DNA of 64,000 bases from Callorhinchus milii (taxonomy: Eukaryota), in the NCBI RefSeq assembly GCF_018977255.1, contig NW_024704743.1, positions 13,022,001 through 13,086,000 on the forward strand, in the 5' to 3' direction. Both the position numbers and the translations under genes were made by a program. The notes under the pieces are model-generated. The model searched no databases. It was not told where the DNA came from and was given only the letters and a program-made list of their open reading frames with translations. Numbering within the stretch: position 1 is the first letter of the stretch; every line of letters begins with the position of its first letter. This document shows positions 13,926 through 31,625 of the stretch, piece after piece.

Positions 13926-14011
13926 CCTAGGGAGGAGAAAAAAAACAGCCAGGGTACCTACTCCTATTATCTATCAAATAACTGTTTAGAAATCTGCATA
14001 TATGGATGCTA

Positions 14012-14185
14012 CTACAACAACAACTTGGATTTATACAGCGTCCTCCACGCCAGACGGCGTCTCAGAGCACTTCACAATAACGGATCCCGGGGCCAAGCCA
14101 GGGGGAGGGGGAAGAAGGTGACCAAAGTCACGGTCGAAAAGAAAGGTCTTTAGCCAAGACCTGAAAGTAGGAAGAGAGCCTACCA
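14012..14185 (-). mobile_element. L2 3'-tail fragment (second subfamily)
   Basis: Reverse complement of the 57600-57770 tail (caacaacaacttg...cagcgtcctccacgccagacggcgtctcagagcactt). Confidence 0.75.
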
Positions 14186-14189
14186 TCAC

Positions 14190-15065
14190 TGTTTAGGTTC
14201 ACATACGTCCAATATATACTCATAAAGTTACCAAAAGAAATGGAAGCACATGTTGGTACTTTCAGGAACAACTATAGGCTCTCCTCTCCATTGCTGAAAT
14301 CAGGATTTAACCGGTGTTGTGAGGATGTCTTGTAACCTATAGCCAAACTATTATAAATTCAATCAATGACTTGGATTAGCAAATTAATCCTATTCCAGGA
14401 CATTCGTTTCCAAATTCTCAGCCAAAATTTCTCTGGGTCCAATCATATCCCTCTAATTTAAATCTTCACCATTCACCACCATATTCCAGATATATGGCCC
14501 CGGAAGCAAAACTATTTGGATCCATAAACTCTGGAAAGTCGTCCAGTCTGAGCACATTATGCAGCTGCATTAAATTCAACTCTGCTGGGTATAGTCTCCA
14601 TTCTTGGAACTCTGCCCACAATCTAGCAGGCAATTGGTTCTGATGCAAATTTATAAATCTATTGGTTTCTGCCTGTGGAAATTGTCAACGATAGGTACTT
14701 CCTGTTCTTTCACCTTCCTTAAAGAATGTGTTGGACTTCTAGATCTGATCTTCTCTCATGCTTTAATCTGTCTCTCAGGACTCTCCAGTATGTCTGGTCA
14801 ACCCGACAGCAATTTCCTCTCCATTCTATTCCATTATCAGGTGCCTATGAGAAGTAACATTACATCTTGTGTTAACTCTGTTTACTCTACTCCTAGCGTA
14901 ATCTGCTCAATATTGGCTATTAGTGTAGTTAAAAATTCACTGAATAAAGCATTCTGGAAAAATAACAAATTCAAATGGTAGTATAACAACAGGCCTGTAT
15001 CATCTACTTCCGATTCTAATAGAGCGAGCATAATGGACTCAATAAGGGAAAAAATGCTTGTGACA
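14190..15065 (-). mobile_element. Candidate endogenous hepadnavirus/nackednavirus-like element (decayed core C-terminal half, polymerase terminal protein, start of RT)
   Basis: Core-like LLYYHLNLLFFQNALFSEFL (14930-14989) and RSRSP (14732-14746) in one frame. TP-like PARLW...G-AIYLEYGGEW*RFKLEGYDW (14439-14630) and RT-like VTRHPHNT (PHNT 14313-14324) in one further frame. RLNPDFS and ILDV follow in shifted frames. By-eye comparison with recalled HBV/DHBV sequences only. Confidence 0.65.
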
Positions 15066-15097
15066 TCCACTTATATAAGGACAAATCCACTTATATA

Positions 15098-15175
15098 AGG
15101 ACTCCACTAACCTCAACCATGACATCTAGTGGAGTGGAGTCTACTAGATGTCATGGTTGAGGTTAGTGGAGTCCT
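15098..15175. repeat. Perfect 33-bp inverted repeat with a 12-nt loop
   Basis: aggactccactaacctcaaccatgacatctagt / actagatgtcatggttgaggttagtggagtcct. Confidence 0.92.
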
Positions 15176-15480
15176 GCAGTTCAGTGGTTAGAGCACTCGC
15201 CTTGCGAGCAAGATAGCTGGGTTCAATTCCAGGCAGGGTGAAACCTTGGGCAAGTTTCCTTACTCTACACGCCTAATAATAATCCCTCCAAAGCGAAGCA
15301 CATCATTTTTGATCCACGACTGTTTGCGGGACACTGCTGTGCGCAATTGGCTGCCGCATTTCGCCCACAAATAAACAGTCAATTTACTTTACAGCATATT
15401 CTGTGAAGCACTTTTAGACATCTAGAAGATGTGAAAAGCGCTATATCAAATGCAAGGATTATTATTTATCATTATTATTA
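15167..15480 (+). mobile_element. Full-length Deu-SINE, short variant
   Basis: ggagtcctgcagttcagtggttagagc...gggttcaattcc, Deu domain, (att)n tail. Confidence 0.9.
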
Positions 15481-16619
15481 TATCTATTATTTAGATATCA
15501 GTATCATTAAGGGAATGTTTTATAAATGGACTTTTGGTCCTTGATCATCTTGCTACAACAATGAATTTGATAACTAAGGAAATAAAAACTTTGTATTTTA
15601 AAGGATATGAAGCTCACAACGTTATAGGCTGAGAAGCATTAATTGCAGAACCATTCAAGGGAAACTCACTGTCAGACTCAACTAAGGCAGCTGTAGATTT
15701 CAGTCATACATCTCTTCCATCACCACTCTATCACCTTATAAAATCCTTCTTAGATCTACTTCCATAACAAACTATTTTGGAAACTAATATCCTAACTCTC
15801 AATATAACTTATAGTATCCACAAAATATACCAGAATCAGGCTACACTCAAGAAAATATCATTAGGTCACTGTTTTGTTTTCTAAATTAAATTAATTTAAA
15901 TAAATTATAAACTTCCTTTTATTTAAAAAAGGGCAACTGAACTGGAGTCTAAAGGAATACTTTATTCAGTGGGTGAAAAAAAACCTTAATCTTTAAGCAG
16001 TGAGAAATCTGCTTCTTAATCGTATACTTGAAACCCATCATTTATTCCTGCACTAGAGTCACTCTTGTTGATGCGCAACATGAAGGAGTTGGAGAGGCTC
16101 CACAAAGTTTATTGGCAACAGAGCTTTTGAGACAACCTGACAGCTAATTTGGAATTACGTAACCTCTGAAACAGTCAGTACTTGAATAGAAAAGACGATG
16201 CTAGTGTTGGGCTATTCTAAAATCTGCTCAAATCATCTACTTACATTAATAGTTTATAGAGCCTTTGCAACACCTCCCTTTAACATCTCACTGACAGGCC
16301 AAGAGGGGAAGTTTCAAAAGTGTTGCTTGGCTCGATTTATAGTGGAAGCAGTCCAAATCAAAATTATTCTCTTTAGACTCATTTCCTTTTAATTGACCCT
16401 GAAGTCTTAATTAATCTATATATTTCATCAAGATTAATAACAGCCCATGGAGTAGCATTTATTGAATTCCTACCTTTGGAACCCAGCTATTCTGGTTGAA
16501 TAGTGATGAAAGATTGTGATTAAAATCATATTGTTAAACAGAATTGTAAAACAAAGACTTGGCTTAGTTGACCCTTTCGTCTGTGCGTGTCTGTGTGTGT
16601 TCCAAGACCTACGTGAGAT

Positions 16620-16920: not shown

Positions 16921-17184
16921 TATGGCCATGTGGTCAATTGGACCTGCTCCTTCCAACAGATCACCAACAATCTACACACAAGGTCTTTACTCTCGAGAGA
17001 GGTAAGCAACTATAGGACAATGGAGTCCAGCATACAATTTGTTTACAAATTGCTGTTTTGTGAATACATGACCCAGGTTCAATGCCAATGACATAGAAAA
17101 TGGTGTATGTAGTTCTTGGTGAGTTGCTTCCAGTACATATGCAATTGACACATTCAGTTACACCACAAATTTCGTCACACAATC

Positions 17185-24450: not shown

Positions 24451-25008
24451 TGAGCTGAGACAATTTTATGACATTACTTTTATGCCATAAAATATTTTAT
24501 TATGCTTTAACAGCACACCAACACATCCCATTTAAAATCAAAGGGGGACAAACATTGGTGGGGGCGTGGGGGGGGGGGGGGGAAGAGATTTTGATTGTAC
24601 TGCGTTTGGTACATTTACTGACCAACAGAGAATCATACAATACAAAATGGCATTTATTTAGAGCCTTTCACTTCGGGAGAACATCCCAATGTGCTGGTTG
24701 AAAAAGAAACATGATTAACAAAGAACCATGTTGGAAGCACCTGGCTGGAAATTAAATGTTTACATTAAAGAGAAAAGTGGCTACATAATGATTAATTAAA
24801 GTCATCATGATGTAATTAAAATACACTACTAACATCGGAATGAGGAAAATAAATATTTTTGGACAAATATTCTTGAATAAGTCTTAATGTGGAAATCAAA
24901 ATAACTATGATATAGCGCTTTTTGGACTATCAGAAGATTAATTTAAATTATAGTTATTGCTGCTCTTTTGCATAAGTTATTGGCTAGAATTAAAATAATT
25001 GACAATAC

Positions 25009-28000
25009 CTTGGACTTATCAGCTTTCCACTTGCTTGAAGGTACCAATATGCCAGAGCGAGACAGGGTTGTTTTTGCTTGGGTGTACGTTAGTTTCTTAT
25101 TCTTTTGTTTCGAGCTGAGAAGACCAAGTACAACCTTTGTGGGCAGGCCTAATGGATTGAGATTGTTTGAGCTAATTGGCCAACTGGCATATGCGGAGGT
25201 CTTTTTGTCTGCCTGCTGTATATGTAAAGGCTTGCACTTTGTTAAATAACACCAACTGAAACTCGTTGAAGTCTTCAGAGTTGAAAGCGATGCACGTTGT
25301 ACATTTCGTGTGCTTGTTATTGGAAAAGAAGCTCCCACCTTTGTCCTCTCCAAGTTACTCATTGGCTGAATTTGGTTGTTTTTATTAAATGGTAACTTAT
25401 TACCTTGAATGTTAGTTGATGACTTCAACAAAGTGTTATTCAACTGTGGAGAAATGGAAGATATGGGTGCAGGTGATTTTTTAATAACGGTACACGAAGG
25501 GGAAGGAGAATGGCTTGAATGTTCGGATTTTAATGTCTCTCTTGAAATTACAGTTCTTTCCTGGCAGCTTGCAACTGCTGAAACCTCCTGGTTGGACTTT
25601 GTTGGTGAGCTATTAAACTCTGAAGTCTCAGGATAGTACTGTGGAGTACCTTCCTGATCAACAGGCAATGGAACATCCACCTGATCTGTGGTGCAAACTT
25701 GCCTCACCAACGTAGGCTTCTTGTGCTTATTGGAGTCAAAAGATACCATGCAGTGTAACTGAATGGATGTAAGATTACTATTGCTTACAGATCCATTTTC
25801 ATCCTTGGCTCTTTTTTGTTGATTTTCCATCGCAATGTCCAAGCTGTTAGCTGGTGACAGCATGCGTTTACTTGATACTGTAGTTTCCTGGTGTGCAAGG
25901 AGTTCATCTGATAAAATCTTTTTAGTATAATTCTGTGAGACAATGTGAACAGGTGAATTTCTGCTTTCACTTTGTGAATTGCAGTTTTCAGGAACAGCAG
26001 ACATTTTTATTTTAGAGGTTACTTCACTTTCATGGAGTTCTGGATAATCCTTTGCTGTTGTAAGCATCTCCTTATCCCTGGTTGAATTGTCAAGATCACA
26101 AATAACTGGAGATAGCTGGCTGGATTGGTCTGGTGTTAGTAAAATCTGTGGCAGCGTTGTAAACGTACCAATGTTATAAACAGACTTATTACTGCCAACA
26201 GGCACGACAAGAGAAGCTAGAGGTTGTATATTGCTAGGTGATTGGGCTGTAATTACTTGCTGAACCTGTGGTACCAAATACAAATTTGAAACAATTTCAA
26301 GTGACTTTGTGGAAACACTTGAAGTCAGCCCACTTGCTTCAATAGTAACAGGGATTGGAAGAGAAATTATTGGCAATTGAGGTGCAGCACTGGGAAGCAA
26401 ACAGGGTTGGCATGGGTGCAGTTGGTATTTGGGAGCAAATCTATTATCTTGAGGCTCAGAAGACTGTGATATACGTTGACCTAAAGTATTTTGGGCTAAA
26501 TGACCTGGCATTACATTTGCAAGCAATATGTTTGTGTTTTCGTGCGGGAGCTGACTTTGGATGGGCCTCTGAACACTGCCAGGTAGTCCCTCAGGCGGTT
26601 GAATATGAATTAGATTGTTCACGCTTACATCTTGTGCGGAAGACATGGATTCATGCTGTGTCGTGTGCTGAACTTGCAACGCGCAAGATAATGGATGCTG
26701 GGAAGTTAAAAAGGACACAGGCCTATGAGCTAAAGGACCTTTGAGATGGGGCACAGCAGAAATCTGCACAGAGAGATTTTGTTGAAATAAGTTGGAAGAC
26801 ACAACTTGAGGTTGAGAAGTTTCTGGCCCAATGCTTAAAGACATTTGTCGCACAAGAGGCCCTCTTCTTCTTTCAATGAGAGGTACAGATTCACATGTTT
26901 CTATTGGAGAAGAAATCAATGGTGAAACCATTTCCATAGGAACTACAGGCGACACAGACCTTGTTGGGGATATACTACCACAATCAAATGACTTGCTGCG
27001 AATTCCTGCAATGGCCTCCATAGAATGTTGCAAAGAACTACTTTGTTCAGATGCAGCGCGTCTCATTTCTCTGTAGTGCGAGCTGGGCACAACAAGTGTA
27101 TTCGTGCCACCAGGCAGTGTAAGAAACTCAGATGATTTATTGATTGCTTCTGCCTTTGAAGGACTCTCGATCCTTGGAGCATCATCCCGATCAAAGGAAG
27201 CTGATAAACTAGAGCAACGAGACAAACTGCTATCCCGACTGAGGCTTCTCGACAGTGTAGAATCAAAGCTCGATTCACCAGATGAATGTTCCATTTCAGC
27301 TAAGCGTATCCTTTTCTTCTTCGGTGGGAGTTTCTCGGTTGGTAGCTTGGAAAGTGTCTCACTTCGCTGAGGCCAGTGAAATGTTTCAGTCCCTTTTTCT
27401 TGATCATTTCCTTGGGGTTCCTGCAATCGGTCTGGTTCTTCTGTAACCAAGATTTCAGGAACTTGAATGTTACGTTGACGGACTAGACGGGATTGCTGTA
27501 AGGGATTATTAATATCAGCAGGCGCCATTCGCAAAGTTTCATGCATTTCTACTCTTGTCGCAGATGTTTCAAGTTGTTGAGCAGATGCAAGTTGAGGGAG
27601 GTGAATTTCTTCTTTACCCTCACCCACAAATATAGCAGGCTGCTTAATTTTGTCATTGAGATCCTTTTCTTGTAAAGGAACAGGAGAAATTCTATCAATG
27701 GATTCAGCATTCTCAAAGGAACTGGTTCTGCTCAAGGAGTTTGTATGTTGAATTACAGACACCCCACTGCTCGTCCTACTTGACTCTCCTCTCTCTTTTA
27801 ATGGACTGTGAACCGATTGGATTGGAATTTCGCTGCTAAAAGACAGTGCAGCCTCCAGAGAGTGTTCTGCATTGCTTATGTGAAAAGGTACATTTTTCGC
27901 ATTGATGCTGTTTGTTTGTGGAATACTGGCAATTGCATTGCTCCCTTTGGATATAACAGCCTTAGCAGCAACTGGATGTGTAGAAGGCTTCTTATTTACC

Positions 28001-31000
28001 GCTTTATCTCTGGTACATTCACTGGATACCACCTCATCATCATCACCAATGCTTCTAATTTTTCTTCTTTTCCTCACCTGCAGTGGTTGCTCCAGAACCC
28101 CCTTTGGCCCCATGACTCTGTAATGCAGTATTTGGGGCTGTGTGCTACGTGACGCAGTTTCCTGTTCTGAATCTTTTGAGACTGTTGGCTTGCTTTTTGG
28201 CCCATGGAGTTCTGAACAGTAGAATTTCTTGTGATTTTCGAAGTTCTCTAGCTTTCTGTATCGGTTTCTACAAGTCTCGCACTCGTACATTGACCCTCGG
28301 CCTTGCGACTTCTTCATCTTTTCCTGTGTGGGAAATGTGTGCTCAAATGATTTGCTCCTGGGCATCAAAATGTCTGCCAGGTTACGTCTATGATAGTTTT
28401 CATCCATAGAACACACCGATGCAAAACTCTGCCCATCACTGATTGATGAATCCTCAACTGCAGTTTGCCTGACCAGGGTTCGCGGATGGGCAGCTTGAAG
28501 GGATTTAGATGGGCCAAGAACAAACACATCATCACTGAATGAACCTCCAATTTTATCATCGAATGAATGGCTCTCGCGCAGTGGGTGGGCTGCAGGCATT
28601 GTACTGGTCCGTATAGTGGAGTACCCTGGAGTAGCAGGCATTGAATTACTTCTTGTAATTGGTAAGCAGTCAAGAGAAGGAAACTGAGGAGGAACCGATA
28701 GAAGAAAAACTTGCTTTGATTTGTCAGTGGGCGTAAAGGGGGACTTTGGTATATCAGAACTGGAGCTTGTTCGCCTTCCAGAATGAAGTGGCCGTAAATC
28801 AAATTGAAAGGAATCTTTAAATGTATATGGTTTGGGTGAATCTATACTCCCTCTCCTTGAAAGAGAGGTTCTTCTTGGTTTCACACTATCCAGCTGCTTA
28901 TCATCTACTACAGCTTCATTGTCTGATATCAACTTGGAAATGCGCTCCTCAAGGGTTTTTGTTGCTGCTGAAATGCGGACAGGAGCAGACAACACTGATG
29001 CTTTTTCAGGTGAGCTCAAATACAAAACGGTGGATATGACATGGCTGCTATGAGGTGGACAAGGAAGGATGTTCTTACCAGGATCCATGTCAGTGGTGGC
29101 TATCAGCTTTTGGAAAGGACTTATTGGGCTCATTTGCTGATCTGCACTCTCAGAACGCGAGAAGTACCCAGAATCTGTGCTGCCTAAACTTCGAGGGCTT
29201 AAATGATGCTTCACTTGCTGTTGCTGAGAAAAGTCGGTAGCTTGCTGCCTCTGAAGCTGTGCATGTCCCATAATCAGCTGAGGTTCATGTTCTTCTTGAT
29301 GACTCATCCTTATCTGTTCCTTATCTTCATGATCTAGTTTCTGAATTGGTGAAGTCAAGGTTGAGATAGACCTAATCCTTGCAGTCTGTGGATCAGTTTC
29401 CTGTTGTGCAGTTGCTCGTTCTGGGGATACGGTCGTCACCTTTGGGCTATCAGCCCTTCGGGGGGAAACAGTCACAGGATACACAACTACTTTCGGTAAA
29501 GCTGTCGTTACTTTAGACTCGCAGGATTTCTGTGGTGGGACTGATTCACCAATCTCGCAATCAAAGGTTTGATTTGCCAGTTTGTCTGATGACATGAAAT
29601 TTACAGGGTCCACATATTTTTCAGAATACAACATATTGCTAGATACTTGTGCAGGCTCTGATTCAAAGTGCTTCTGTTCAAACAATCTTTCTTCAGATGT
29701 GGATTCATCATCACTCTCACCACTTTCTTCTACATCTGAGTGAGTATTAAGTGCTCGGTCAGATTCCTGGGACAGCGATGCACCACTGCTCTCGGATCTC
29801 AAAACCAAACCAAGTTTGATAGCATGTGCATGGGACTTTTTGTGCTTATATAAATTGCTTTTAGTCTTAAATGAAAATCCACATGTAATACAAGGGTAGG
29901 GTCGTTCACCTGTATGGGATCGAATGTGTTTTTGCAGGACACTAGGTTTTGCACAAGCTCGATTACAATACTCGCAAATGTATTTCCCTTGCTTTTTAGG
30001 CTTCTGGTCTTTAAGCAAGATATCAGACATTTGGTTATAACCAGGTGCTACCTGAACACAGTTAGGTGGATTAGCTGCTATAGATTGTTTTGGATAACCC
30101 AAAAGTTGACTTTGAGGCAGACCGTGTGGCATGACAGAGGCCTGAGGATGACCTAATGGCGTCACTGTTAAATTGTACGTCGATTGATAATAGTGCTTTT
30201 CTTGGCTATGCTGGTGTGATGGTGATCCATTGAACCTTTGCGATAAGGCATGGTGTTGATTTTGTTGTGCAGCCGGTGAAACAAATCGGGTTTGCTGGTA
30301 GTGTACATATGACGAAGGCTGAACCTGTGCTTGTTCTCTATTCCCTGATTTGGGCACAATCTGAGTAACATTACAATAATCCTGTGATCCTGTGCCAAAT
30401 TCAGACTTGATCACTGAAGTCTGCTTTAGAACCTGTGAGGTTATTGTTGAGATTCCAGTGGACTCTCCTTGGGTTCCAATAGTGGCATTCGATTTTCTTG
30501 AACCCTCTGCAATTAGTGAGGATTTCCTACTTGAAAGAGTCTTTAGTTCAGGTTCCATAGCTTTCAATAAGACATCAAAAGCAGTACTTGCATATGAGGG
30601 AGAAATCCCGTGTGTACTGCAAGTATTGTTCTCAGGTTTAATGATCCAATGTTCACGAAACAGAGATAAATGATCAAGCTGATGTTGCGGTCGCTCTTTT
30701 GATAATGCGTGAATTTTATCTATTCCTGGTGATTTCACTTTAACATCCCTTTCAAGTTGTTGAGCTCTCCAATTTGGAGGTCTGCTACATGAATCAATTG
30801 AGTGCTGCGTTGCTTCAATCCTCCCCTTCTGCATTGATCTGCCTGGTTTGGTTTTCTCAAAATTTTGATTTAGCCCTTGTGAATGTTCTTGCTGAGACTC
30901 TCTTTCAGTCTCCACTCCTCCATTTTGCACAAACAAGTGGTCTTTCTTTAAAAGTTCAGAAGCAACTGAAGAATCACTAAACAAAACTGCTGCTTCCAAA

Positions 31001-31142
31001 TTCTCCCTATCATTGCGAGACTTTGCGAGTGTTTTCACAGGAGACCTGGGGATTTTCTTCAGAATGTTTTCAGCCACAATCTTCTTCCTCTTTATACCTT
31101 TGACTGTATTTGCTTTTCTTTTGCCTTTCGAGTCATGAAATT
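25009..31142 (-). CDS. HIVEP1: HIVEP1 giant exon (6134 nt): N-terminal C2H2 pair (YICEYCNRACAKPSVLQKHIRSHTGERPYPCITCGFSFKTKSNLYKHKKSHAH, ~29821-29985), isolated C2HC finger (YECETCRNRYRKLENFENHKKFYC, ~28215-28290), Ser-rich ZAS regions
   Basis: Lies within the 2088-aa ORF 24943..31209. Acceptor tttccacag|AA (phase 1), donor AAG|gtattg (phase 0). KGIKRKKIVAEN, SLGSTDSGYFSRSESADQ and KLPTEKLPPKKKR are Schnurri/HIVEP hallmarks. Confidence 0.97.
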
Positions 31143-31211
31143 CTGTGGAAACATTTAATTCAAGATAATTAGTGCCTCTATATAGCAGTAATGAAGCTGT
31201 TACATACATAA

Positions 31212-31625
31212 GCCTCAGCCTGACTCAGTTGGTAGCACTCTCGCCTCTGAGTCAGAATGTTGTGGGTTTAAGCCCCACATTGGGACTTAAATTCAGCCTA
31301 TGCTGACACTCCAATGCAGTGAGAATGCTGCATTGTTAGAGATGCAGTCCTTCAGATAAGTCCTTAAACCAAGGTCCTGTCTGCCTGATCAGGTGGACAT
31401 AAATTCAAAGAGATGGGAGTTTGTCCTGGCCAACAACCATCCAAATAACAAATTGGTTAATAATTCACTTCATGGCTGTTTGTGGGATACTGCTATGTGC
31501 AAATTGGCTGCCACATTCCCCCACAAATTACACAATCACTGCACTTTACAGTATATCCCCTCAAGCACTTTGGGATGTCCTCCTGACTTGAAAGGCACTA
31601 TACTAAATGCAAAGACTACTATTAA
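31212..31625 (+). mobile_element. Older tRNA-headed Deu-SINE (SacSINE1-like) about 70 bp upstream of the giant-exon acceptor
   Basis: gactcagttggtagcactctcgcctctgagtcagaa...gggtttaagcccca head, gctgtttgtgggatactgctatgtgcaaattggctgcc Deu domain, L2-type tail. Confidence 0.75.

Follow-up and report, generated by a model that had tools for sequence, protein, structure and literature searches.

A candidate germline fossil of a hepadna-like virus in a HIVEP-type intron of Callorhinchus milii

Endogenous elements of hepadnaviruses (eHBVs) are well known in sauropsids, as with eHBV-Meta.1-Sauria in the accessible parts of PMC7955980. That hepadnaviruses infect cartilaginous fishes is also already known: exogenous viruses from Chimaera phantasma and from a guitarfish (Rhinobatos) group with the metahepadnaviruses in the available text of PMC8227577. 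For Callorhinchus milii itself, the accessible part of PMC11089739 reports one 'relatively short' eHBV from a tBLASTn screen, and its readable supplements give no coordinates for the element. The available text of PMC12241316 mentions no sharks. The dates at the hepadnavirus/nackednavirus tree carry a calibration of 69 million years in the accessible part of PMC12691608. A second chimaera element or an endogenous nackednavirus is not reported in the literature covered, which mostly leaves subscription papers aside.

The window analysed here is a stretch of 64,000 nucleotides from the C. milii assembly GCF_018977255.1 (contig NW_024704743.1) and contains, at about 14180-15070, a segment that the initial annotation had read as a relic of a hepadna-like virus. 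Custom profiles, run with controls, give a signal for viral core and terminal protein (TP) in this segment (Table 1), whereas no standard search does so and reverse transcriptase (RT) finds no support at the protein level. We consider the segment probably to be a germline relic, no longer functional, of a reverse-transcribing DNA virus of hepadna-like type (order Blubervirales), too decayed for ordinary searches; this is a judgement in which the scores were weighed against a genome with at least one hepadnavirus uptake. The fossil would retain the back half of the core and most of TP, with perhaps the opening codons of RT as well.

Table 1. Features of the segment and its borders in window coordinates, with strand where assigned.
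Feature	Position	Strand	Basis or remark
Core-like open frame, 62 codons	14885..15070	-	Best block 14930-14989, similar to the helix-4b region of hepadnaviral core
Core frame continued, four stops (14759-14884), then RSRSP	14660..14884	-	Frame reading
Stretch from 14728, weakly aligned to the start of TP	within 14660..14884	-	6.9 bits, p per position 0.0012
TP-like frame, one in-frame stop at 14466-14468	14430..14684	-	Custom profile
TP-like blocks	14637-14654, 14547-14630, 14529-14543, 14439-14501 (T3 region)	-	7.7, 17.8, 9.5 and 13.9 bits
Candidate RT start across three frames, ~34 codons past the TP end; unproven	14190..14340	-	Motifs
110-base second copy of 14222-14331, splits an L2	13059..13168	-	10/110 bases differ, no indels
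L2-type 3' tail, closes the RT side	13999..14180	-	Repeat depth; repeat cover 13999-14165
SINE-type repeat, closes the core side	15065..15496	.	Repeat analysis
36-base inverted repeat at the SINE junction	15098-15175		
18-base direct repeat at the SINE junction	15065-15102		

The segment had been described as non-repeat DNA flanked by an L2 tail and by a SINE, and this description holds: it has single-copy depth in all four of the runs examined for read depth, with repeats on either side, of which the tail is one that we, like the earlier reader, take to be an L2. Its base composition is no different from that of the neighbouring intron DNA. It lies in the gene's sense in an intron of ~16 kb between HIVEP-type exons at ~19.3 kb and ~3.5 kb, so that its placement in an intron stands. 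The paralogue is presumably HIVEP1; of the many zinc fingers, only a pair is HIVEP1/MBP-1-like. A very large HIVEP-type exon with an open frame of 2,093 codons and two zinc-finger regions is present at 24943-31224 on the minus strand. At the SINE end of the segment (15065-15175), a near-perfect 36-base inverted repeat with a 6-base loop adjoins an 18-base tandem duplication, and this structure is probably an insertion-junction fold-back.

The segment is not confined to the assembled individual. An identical contig of 1,005 bases over 14149-15153, which extends into both flanking repeats, was found in one run (X1); nine of the 24 listed runs, all of one organism, carry all or part of the segment, and 70-100% of its words are present in six runs from six samples. 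No RNA run is listed among the carriers, which has no bearing on expression. The segment is endogenous in the usual sense, being chromosomal, enclosed by host DNA, broken in its frames and carried by other individuals. The search for paralogous copies that had been proposed returned, in a genome of 991.5 Mb, the 110-base copy as the sole other match at the DNA level, and a protein search of the genome returned no further copies.

Similarity to viral proteins was assessed with codon-level, frameshift-aware profiles that allow for neutral decay and were built on proteins from viral genomes; a lineage-balanced version represents five hepadnavirus lineages. The genomic null comprised 19 stretches of 10 kb in addition to the window, on both strands and reversed, lightly masked. 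The peptides named in the initial annotation are all present on the minus strand (core block 14930-14989, RSRSP from 14746, PARLW from 14630). For the core block of 20 columns the score is 16.5-17.5 bits, with none of 892,000 null positions higher (null maximum 15.0, ungapped), the limits of this block and of the TP blocks having been chosen after the match was seen. With a held-out profile of two core proteins, the best block falls at the same place (11.8 bits, 35 null positions higher). As a local alignment the core is weaker (p ~0.004-0.016 per 1.5-kb window), and it adds ~8 bits once TP is given, in viral order only. The RSRSP that had been likened to the basic tail of the core does follow the block in the same frame, but across four in-frame stops. 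Beyond the SINE, where the N-terminal half of the core would lie, scores are at background, including a weak tblastn match at 16926-16973.

The TP blocks reach 21.9-25.3 bits, above all 892,000 null positions (null maximum 15.2 for the 21.9-bit run), and a held-out profile of three proteins places its best block at the same site with 20.8 bits and no null position higher. Local alignment of TP gives p ~1e-5 to 2e-3 per 1.5-kb window. Its gapped score is 37.4 bits, where the highest of 594 null windows has 27.6, and its Forward score alone is 27.4 bits; this support is strong locally and by itself below genome-wide significance. The TP block is also the one that hhalign selects in each of two comparisons (E 0.0078 and 0.0009), at probabilities of just 5% and 23%. 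The best single lineage is that of the fish metahepadnaviruses (25.6 bits). The glycine that had been assigned to the T3 motif is indeed found at 14501, 43 codons past the P of PARLW, but the register is better read otherwise, with PARLW as the P-x-R-x-W turn that precedes PA[RK]FW by nine codons (17.8 versus 14.4 bits) and the R-L-Y-P after it as the conserved motif itself, a KYP-like block of 9.5 bits. Between that block and the T3 block (13.9 bits) is a gap in which about ten residues are missing, and weak blocks at 14728 and 14654 carry TP upstream over a frame change. The annotation had seen no clear priming GxY, and no frame holds one where the priming motif would align.

In the first frameshift-aware runs, low-complexity windows dominated and the target stood behind 12-38 of 465; in later runs ~12% and then ~4% of the null was masked, and heavily masked windows were discarded. 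With the first profile set, p per 1.5-kb window was 0.016 (core), 0.0023 (TP) and 0.0016 (the two combined). The Forward score for core followed by TP is 24.7 bits with the first set, 22.2 with the held-out set and 32.8 with the balanced set over 1.5 kb (mean of the three sets 31.3, close to what chance would give genome-wide, ~31). For the balanced set the null has a mean of 10.7 and a maximum of 23.9, and none of the 594 genomic windows reaches 32.8. The element by itself scores 35.3 bits, compared with maxima of 22.9 in 692 local triplet shuffles, 21.0 in 731 Markov samples and 18.9 with 715 column-permuted profiles, and 32 decoy pairs of RT and RNase H give at most 11.1 bits. Core lies before P on one strand, and the same element drops from 35.3 to 25.9 bits when the order is made wrong. 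Leaving out any one of the five lineages yields 31.8-36.0 bits; when indel rates are set higher, the score drops to 14-28 bits. The fit requires several deletions, and the distance from core to TP, 353 bases in the earlier register and ~380 in the better one, compares with 394-505 in 17 of the 19 genomes measured. The frameshift-aware search that had been recommended thus produced a core and TP signal, but nothing for RT.

Standard methods detect none of this. A significant profile match to core, TP or RT had been set in advance as a test, and no frame gave one: with six frames read through with X, Pfam returned no hepadnaviral match and no other family, PF00906 (core) and PF00242 (TP) included. 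Among 1.84 billion proteins, phmmer had no match to the TP frame at E 0.001, the core frame retrieved nothing relevant from PDB sequences, and the best tblastn match at the locus has E 2.2. Plain HMMs from 18 P and 16 core proteins gave 2.2 bits for the core piece, below other sites of the window, and nothing for P. Over the whole genome, PF00242 and PF00336 had no match above cut-off (PF00242 also misses the TP of a second element described below), and whole P proteins matched RTs of retrotransposons and retroviruses alone. Single-sequence fold models reached pLDDT 48 and 36, and a fold search with the first was uninformative (best Z 5.8).

These blank searches are what would be expected if the segment were ordinary old intron DNA whose chance likeness to hepadnaviral motifs was selected by looking for motifs over very many windows, a reading that we regard as unlikely but serious. 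A genome of such size offers ~2^31 start positions, with a chance level of ~31 bits; by our arithmetic, 31.3-35.3 bits corresponds to ~0.05-0.75 chance loci per genome (overall roughly 0.05-1), and to more where tails are heavier than theory, as they are by up to 3.5-6 times in real windows and local shuffles. The profiles and blocks were, moreover, refined after the target had been seen. Chance would not, however, readily account for the fact that none of the 594 real windows and none of the 2,138 shuffles or decoy profiles comes within 8 bits, that the support from core depends on viral order, or that adding deeper lineages lifted the score from 24.7 to 32.8. That the segment is instead the decayed remnant of another retroelement, virus or host gene appears highly improbable. 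It would fit a single-copy, repeat-bounded sequence with stop-poor stretches of 62 and 85 codons, but the six frames contain no Pfam family, the genome holds no other full copy by DNA or protein search, and the ORFs of 20 retroelement loci of the genome show no credible match (best E 0.006, at a repeat edge).

The genome does contain a recognisable hepadnaviral element. Searched with PF00906, it yielded a separate locus on contig C5 (E 9.6e-10), on the minus strand at about 27,349.6-27,351.8 kb. Its core is in two pieces with a SINE between them, and its TP, with a GLY priming motif, is split by another repeat and followed by the T3 region and a spacer with a preS-like start. In tblastn this element has E 2e-13 and is closest to white sucker HBV, with pieces 41-49% identical to it; the virus was named by matching the TP of the closest genome (L071) by eye to a row in the accessible material of PMC5604429. 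As positive control in the custom core and TP profile it scores 74-84 bits. Its core pieces and those of the intron segment do not align to each other. Also seen in the genome were near-identical young retrovirus-like elements with a single stop between gag and pol on several contigs (L060-L066, L068), and a family of LTR-type elements in which pol forms long open frames and of which many lie on small contigs (L050-L056).

The annotation had mentioned a report of a ghostshark element, which might or might not be this one. The report exists, as PMC11089739 in its accessible part, but most likely concerns the other locus. Since the element on C5 alone is visible to tblastn, it is probably the published eHBV. 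Skipping its repeats, it is longer than 'relatively short' suggests. That the intron segment is the published element is scarcely credible: only one 'relatively short' element is given for C. milii in the available text, which could describe the segment, but it came from a tBLASTn screen, to which the segment is invisible while the locus on C5 is conspicuous.

Some 250 bases are left past TP. The RT motifs of the initial annotation are present there in three frames, from 14336, 14313, 14299 and 14218, but are no better than chance at the protein level: given core and TP, an RT profile contributes ~0 bits in 12 of 12 settings, a likelihood ratio of ~1. At the nucleotide level, the 25 bases at 14312-14336 agree with the RT start of a human HBV-type genome (L021) in 23 of 26 columns, a post hoc match whose score is equalled by one of 1,912 null pieces, with the other 20 of the 21 viral genomes at or near background. 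From the T3 glycine to the RT-like valine, of unproven identity as RT, there are 55 codons, versus 170-272 in 17 hepadnaviruses. The segment stops at the L2 tail before the YMDD and RNase H domains would begin.

A short hinge between TP and RT may be nackednavirus-like or the product of a deletion, and loss of the spacer is as plausible. Within the favoured reading of a hepadna-like fossil, we consider a variant in which spacer and envelope gene were both lacking from the source virus and TP passed into RT through a short hinge. The segment would then stem from a non-enveloped virus whose core and TP were of hepadnavirus type, as a germline fossil that may exceed 100 million years in age, a reading that we think distinctly doubtful. 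The 55-codon interval points this way, as does a hinge of ~34 codons compared with ~24 in RNDV (by eye, from supplement rows in the accessible part of PMC5604429), where the 25-base match sits; by eye, TP is not followed by a preS-like Met-Gly start of the kind that the element on C5 has. Yet the RT on which the hinge depends finds no protein-level support, and the nucleotide match is to human HBV alone and was noticed post hoc. The spacing of 21 between the T3 glycine and tryptophan is hepadnaviral, most nackednavirus rows in the material available having 23 (by eye), and among single lineages it is the enveloped fish metahepadnaviruses that fit best. Other deletions are seen in the element, and the spacer may have gone during or after integration. 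If this variant were true, the segment would represent a nackednavirus-hepadnavirus intermediate, by the literature covered the first endogenous envelope-less member in a vertebrate, and also the first such sign from cartilaginous fishes; the question of the spacer bears on the timing of envelope gain.

On the general picture of eHBVs, a linear piece of viral DNA would have been captured at break repair in a germ cell, and both ends would later have been cut off by the L2 and SINE insertions. A 110-base piece would have been copied 1.2 kb away into an L2, and the remainder may have decayed neutrally, with no protein product and with transcription only as part of the host intron. The short copy resembles a templated insertion from 1.2 kb away. 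Because it has no indels, the frame changes in the copied region predate the copying. The differences between the two copies (95% interval 4-16%) correspond to ~220 million years at 2.2e-10 per site per year, the rate assumed in the accessible part of PMC4422223, and to ~50 million at 1e-9, our own assumption. The divergence thus points to an age between tens and hundreds of millions of years for the DNA, whatever its origin.

We would place the segment in the order Blubervirales and assign no family. It works like an eHBV, but is kept out of Hepadnaviridae because it lacks the priming motif and because neither its spacer nor its RT is proven. If the fossil is real, a holocephalan germline would hold a second hepadna-like insertion, much older than that on C5 and of a distinct lineage, and the implication would be that BLAST-based screens miss such fossils. 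Orthologues in other chimaeras, in sharks or in rays would set, by host dating, a minimum age close to the hepadnavirus/nackednavirus root, where dates now rest on much younger calibrations.

Like the sauropsid eHBVs in the accessible text of PMC7955980, the segment is a sub-genomic, broken and fixed germline fragment with pieces of core and P, and some of those are likewise intronic; it differs from them in its cartilaginous-fish host, in lying below BLAST detection, in having no assignable genus and in showing no spacer. With the element on C5 it shares the genome, the order of core then TP and the interruption by host repeats, whereas the GLY priming motif and the spacer with its preS-like start belong to that element alone. 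The nackednaviruses and proto-nackednaviruses (PMC5604429 and PMC12691608, both in part) would share its short hinge between TP and RT, if the RT-like piece is real, but by eye, against the supplement rows at hand, its TP spacing and RT-start motif look hepadnaviral. Among exogenous viruses, the fish metahepadnaviruses (bluegill HBV and eastern sea garfish HBV) give the best single-lineage TP score, with 7-8 identities in 28 columns, and unlike the segment they are intact and enveloped and have a long spacer.
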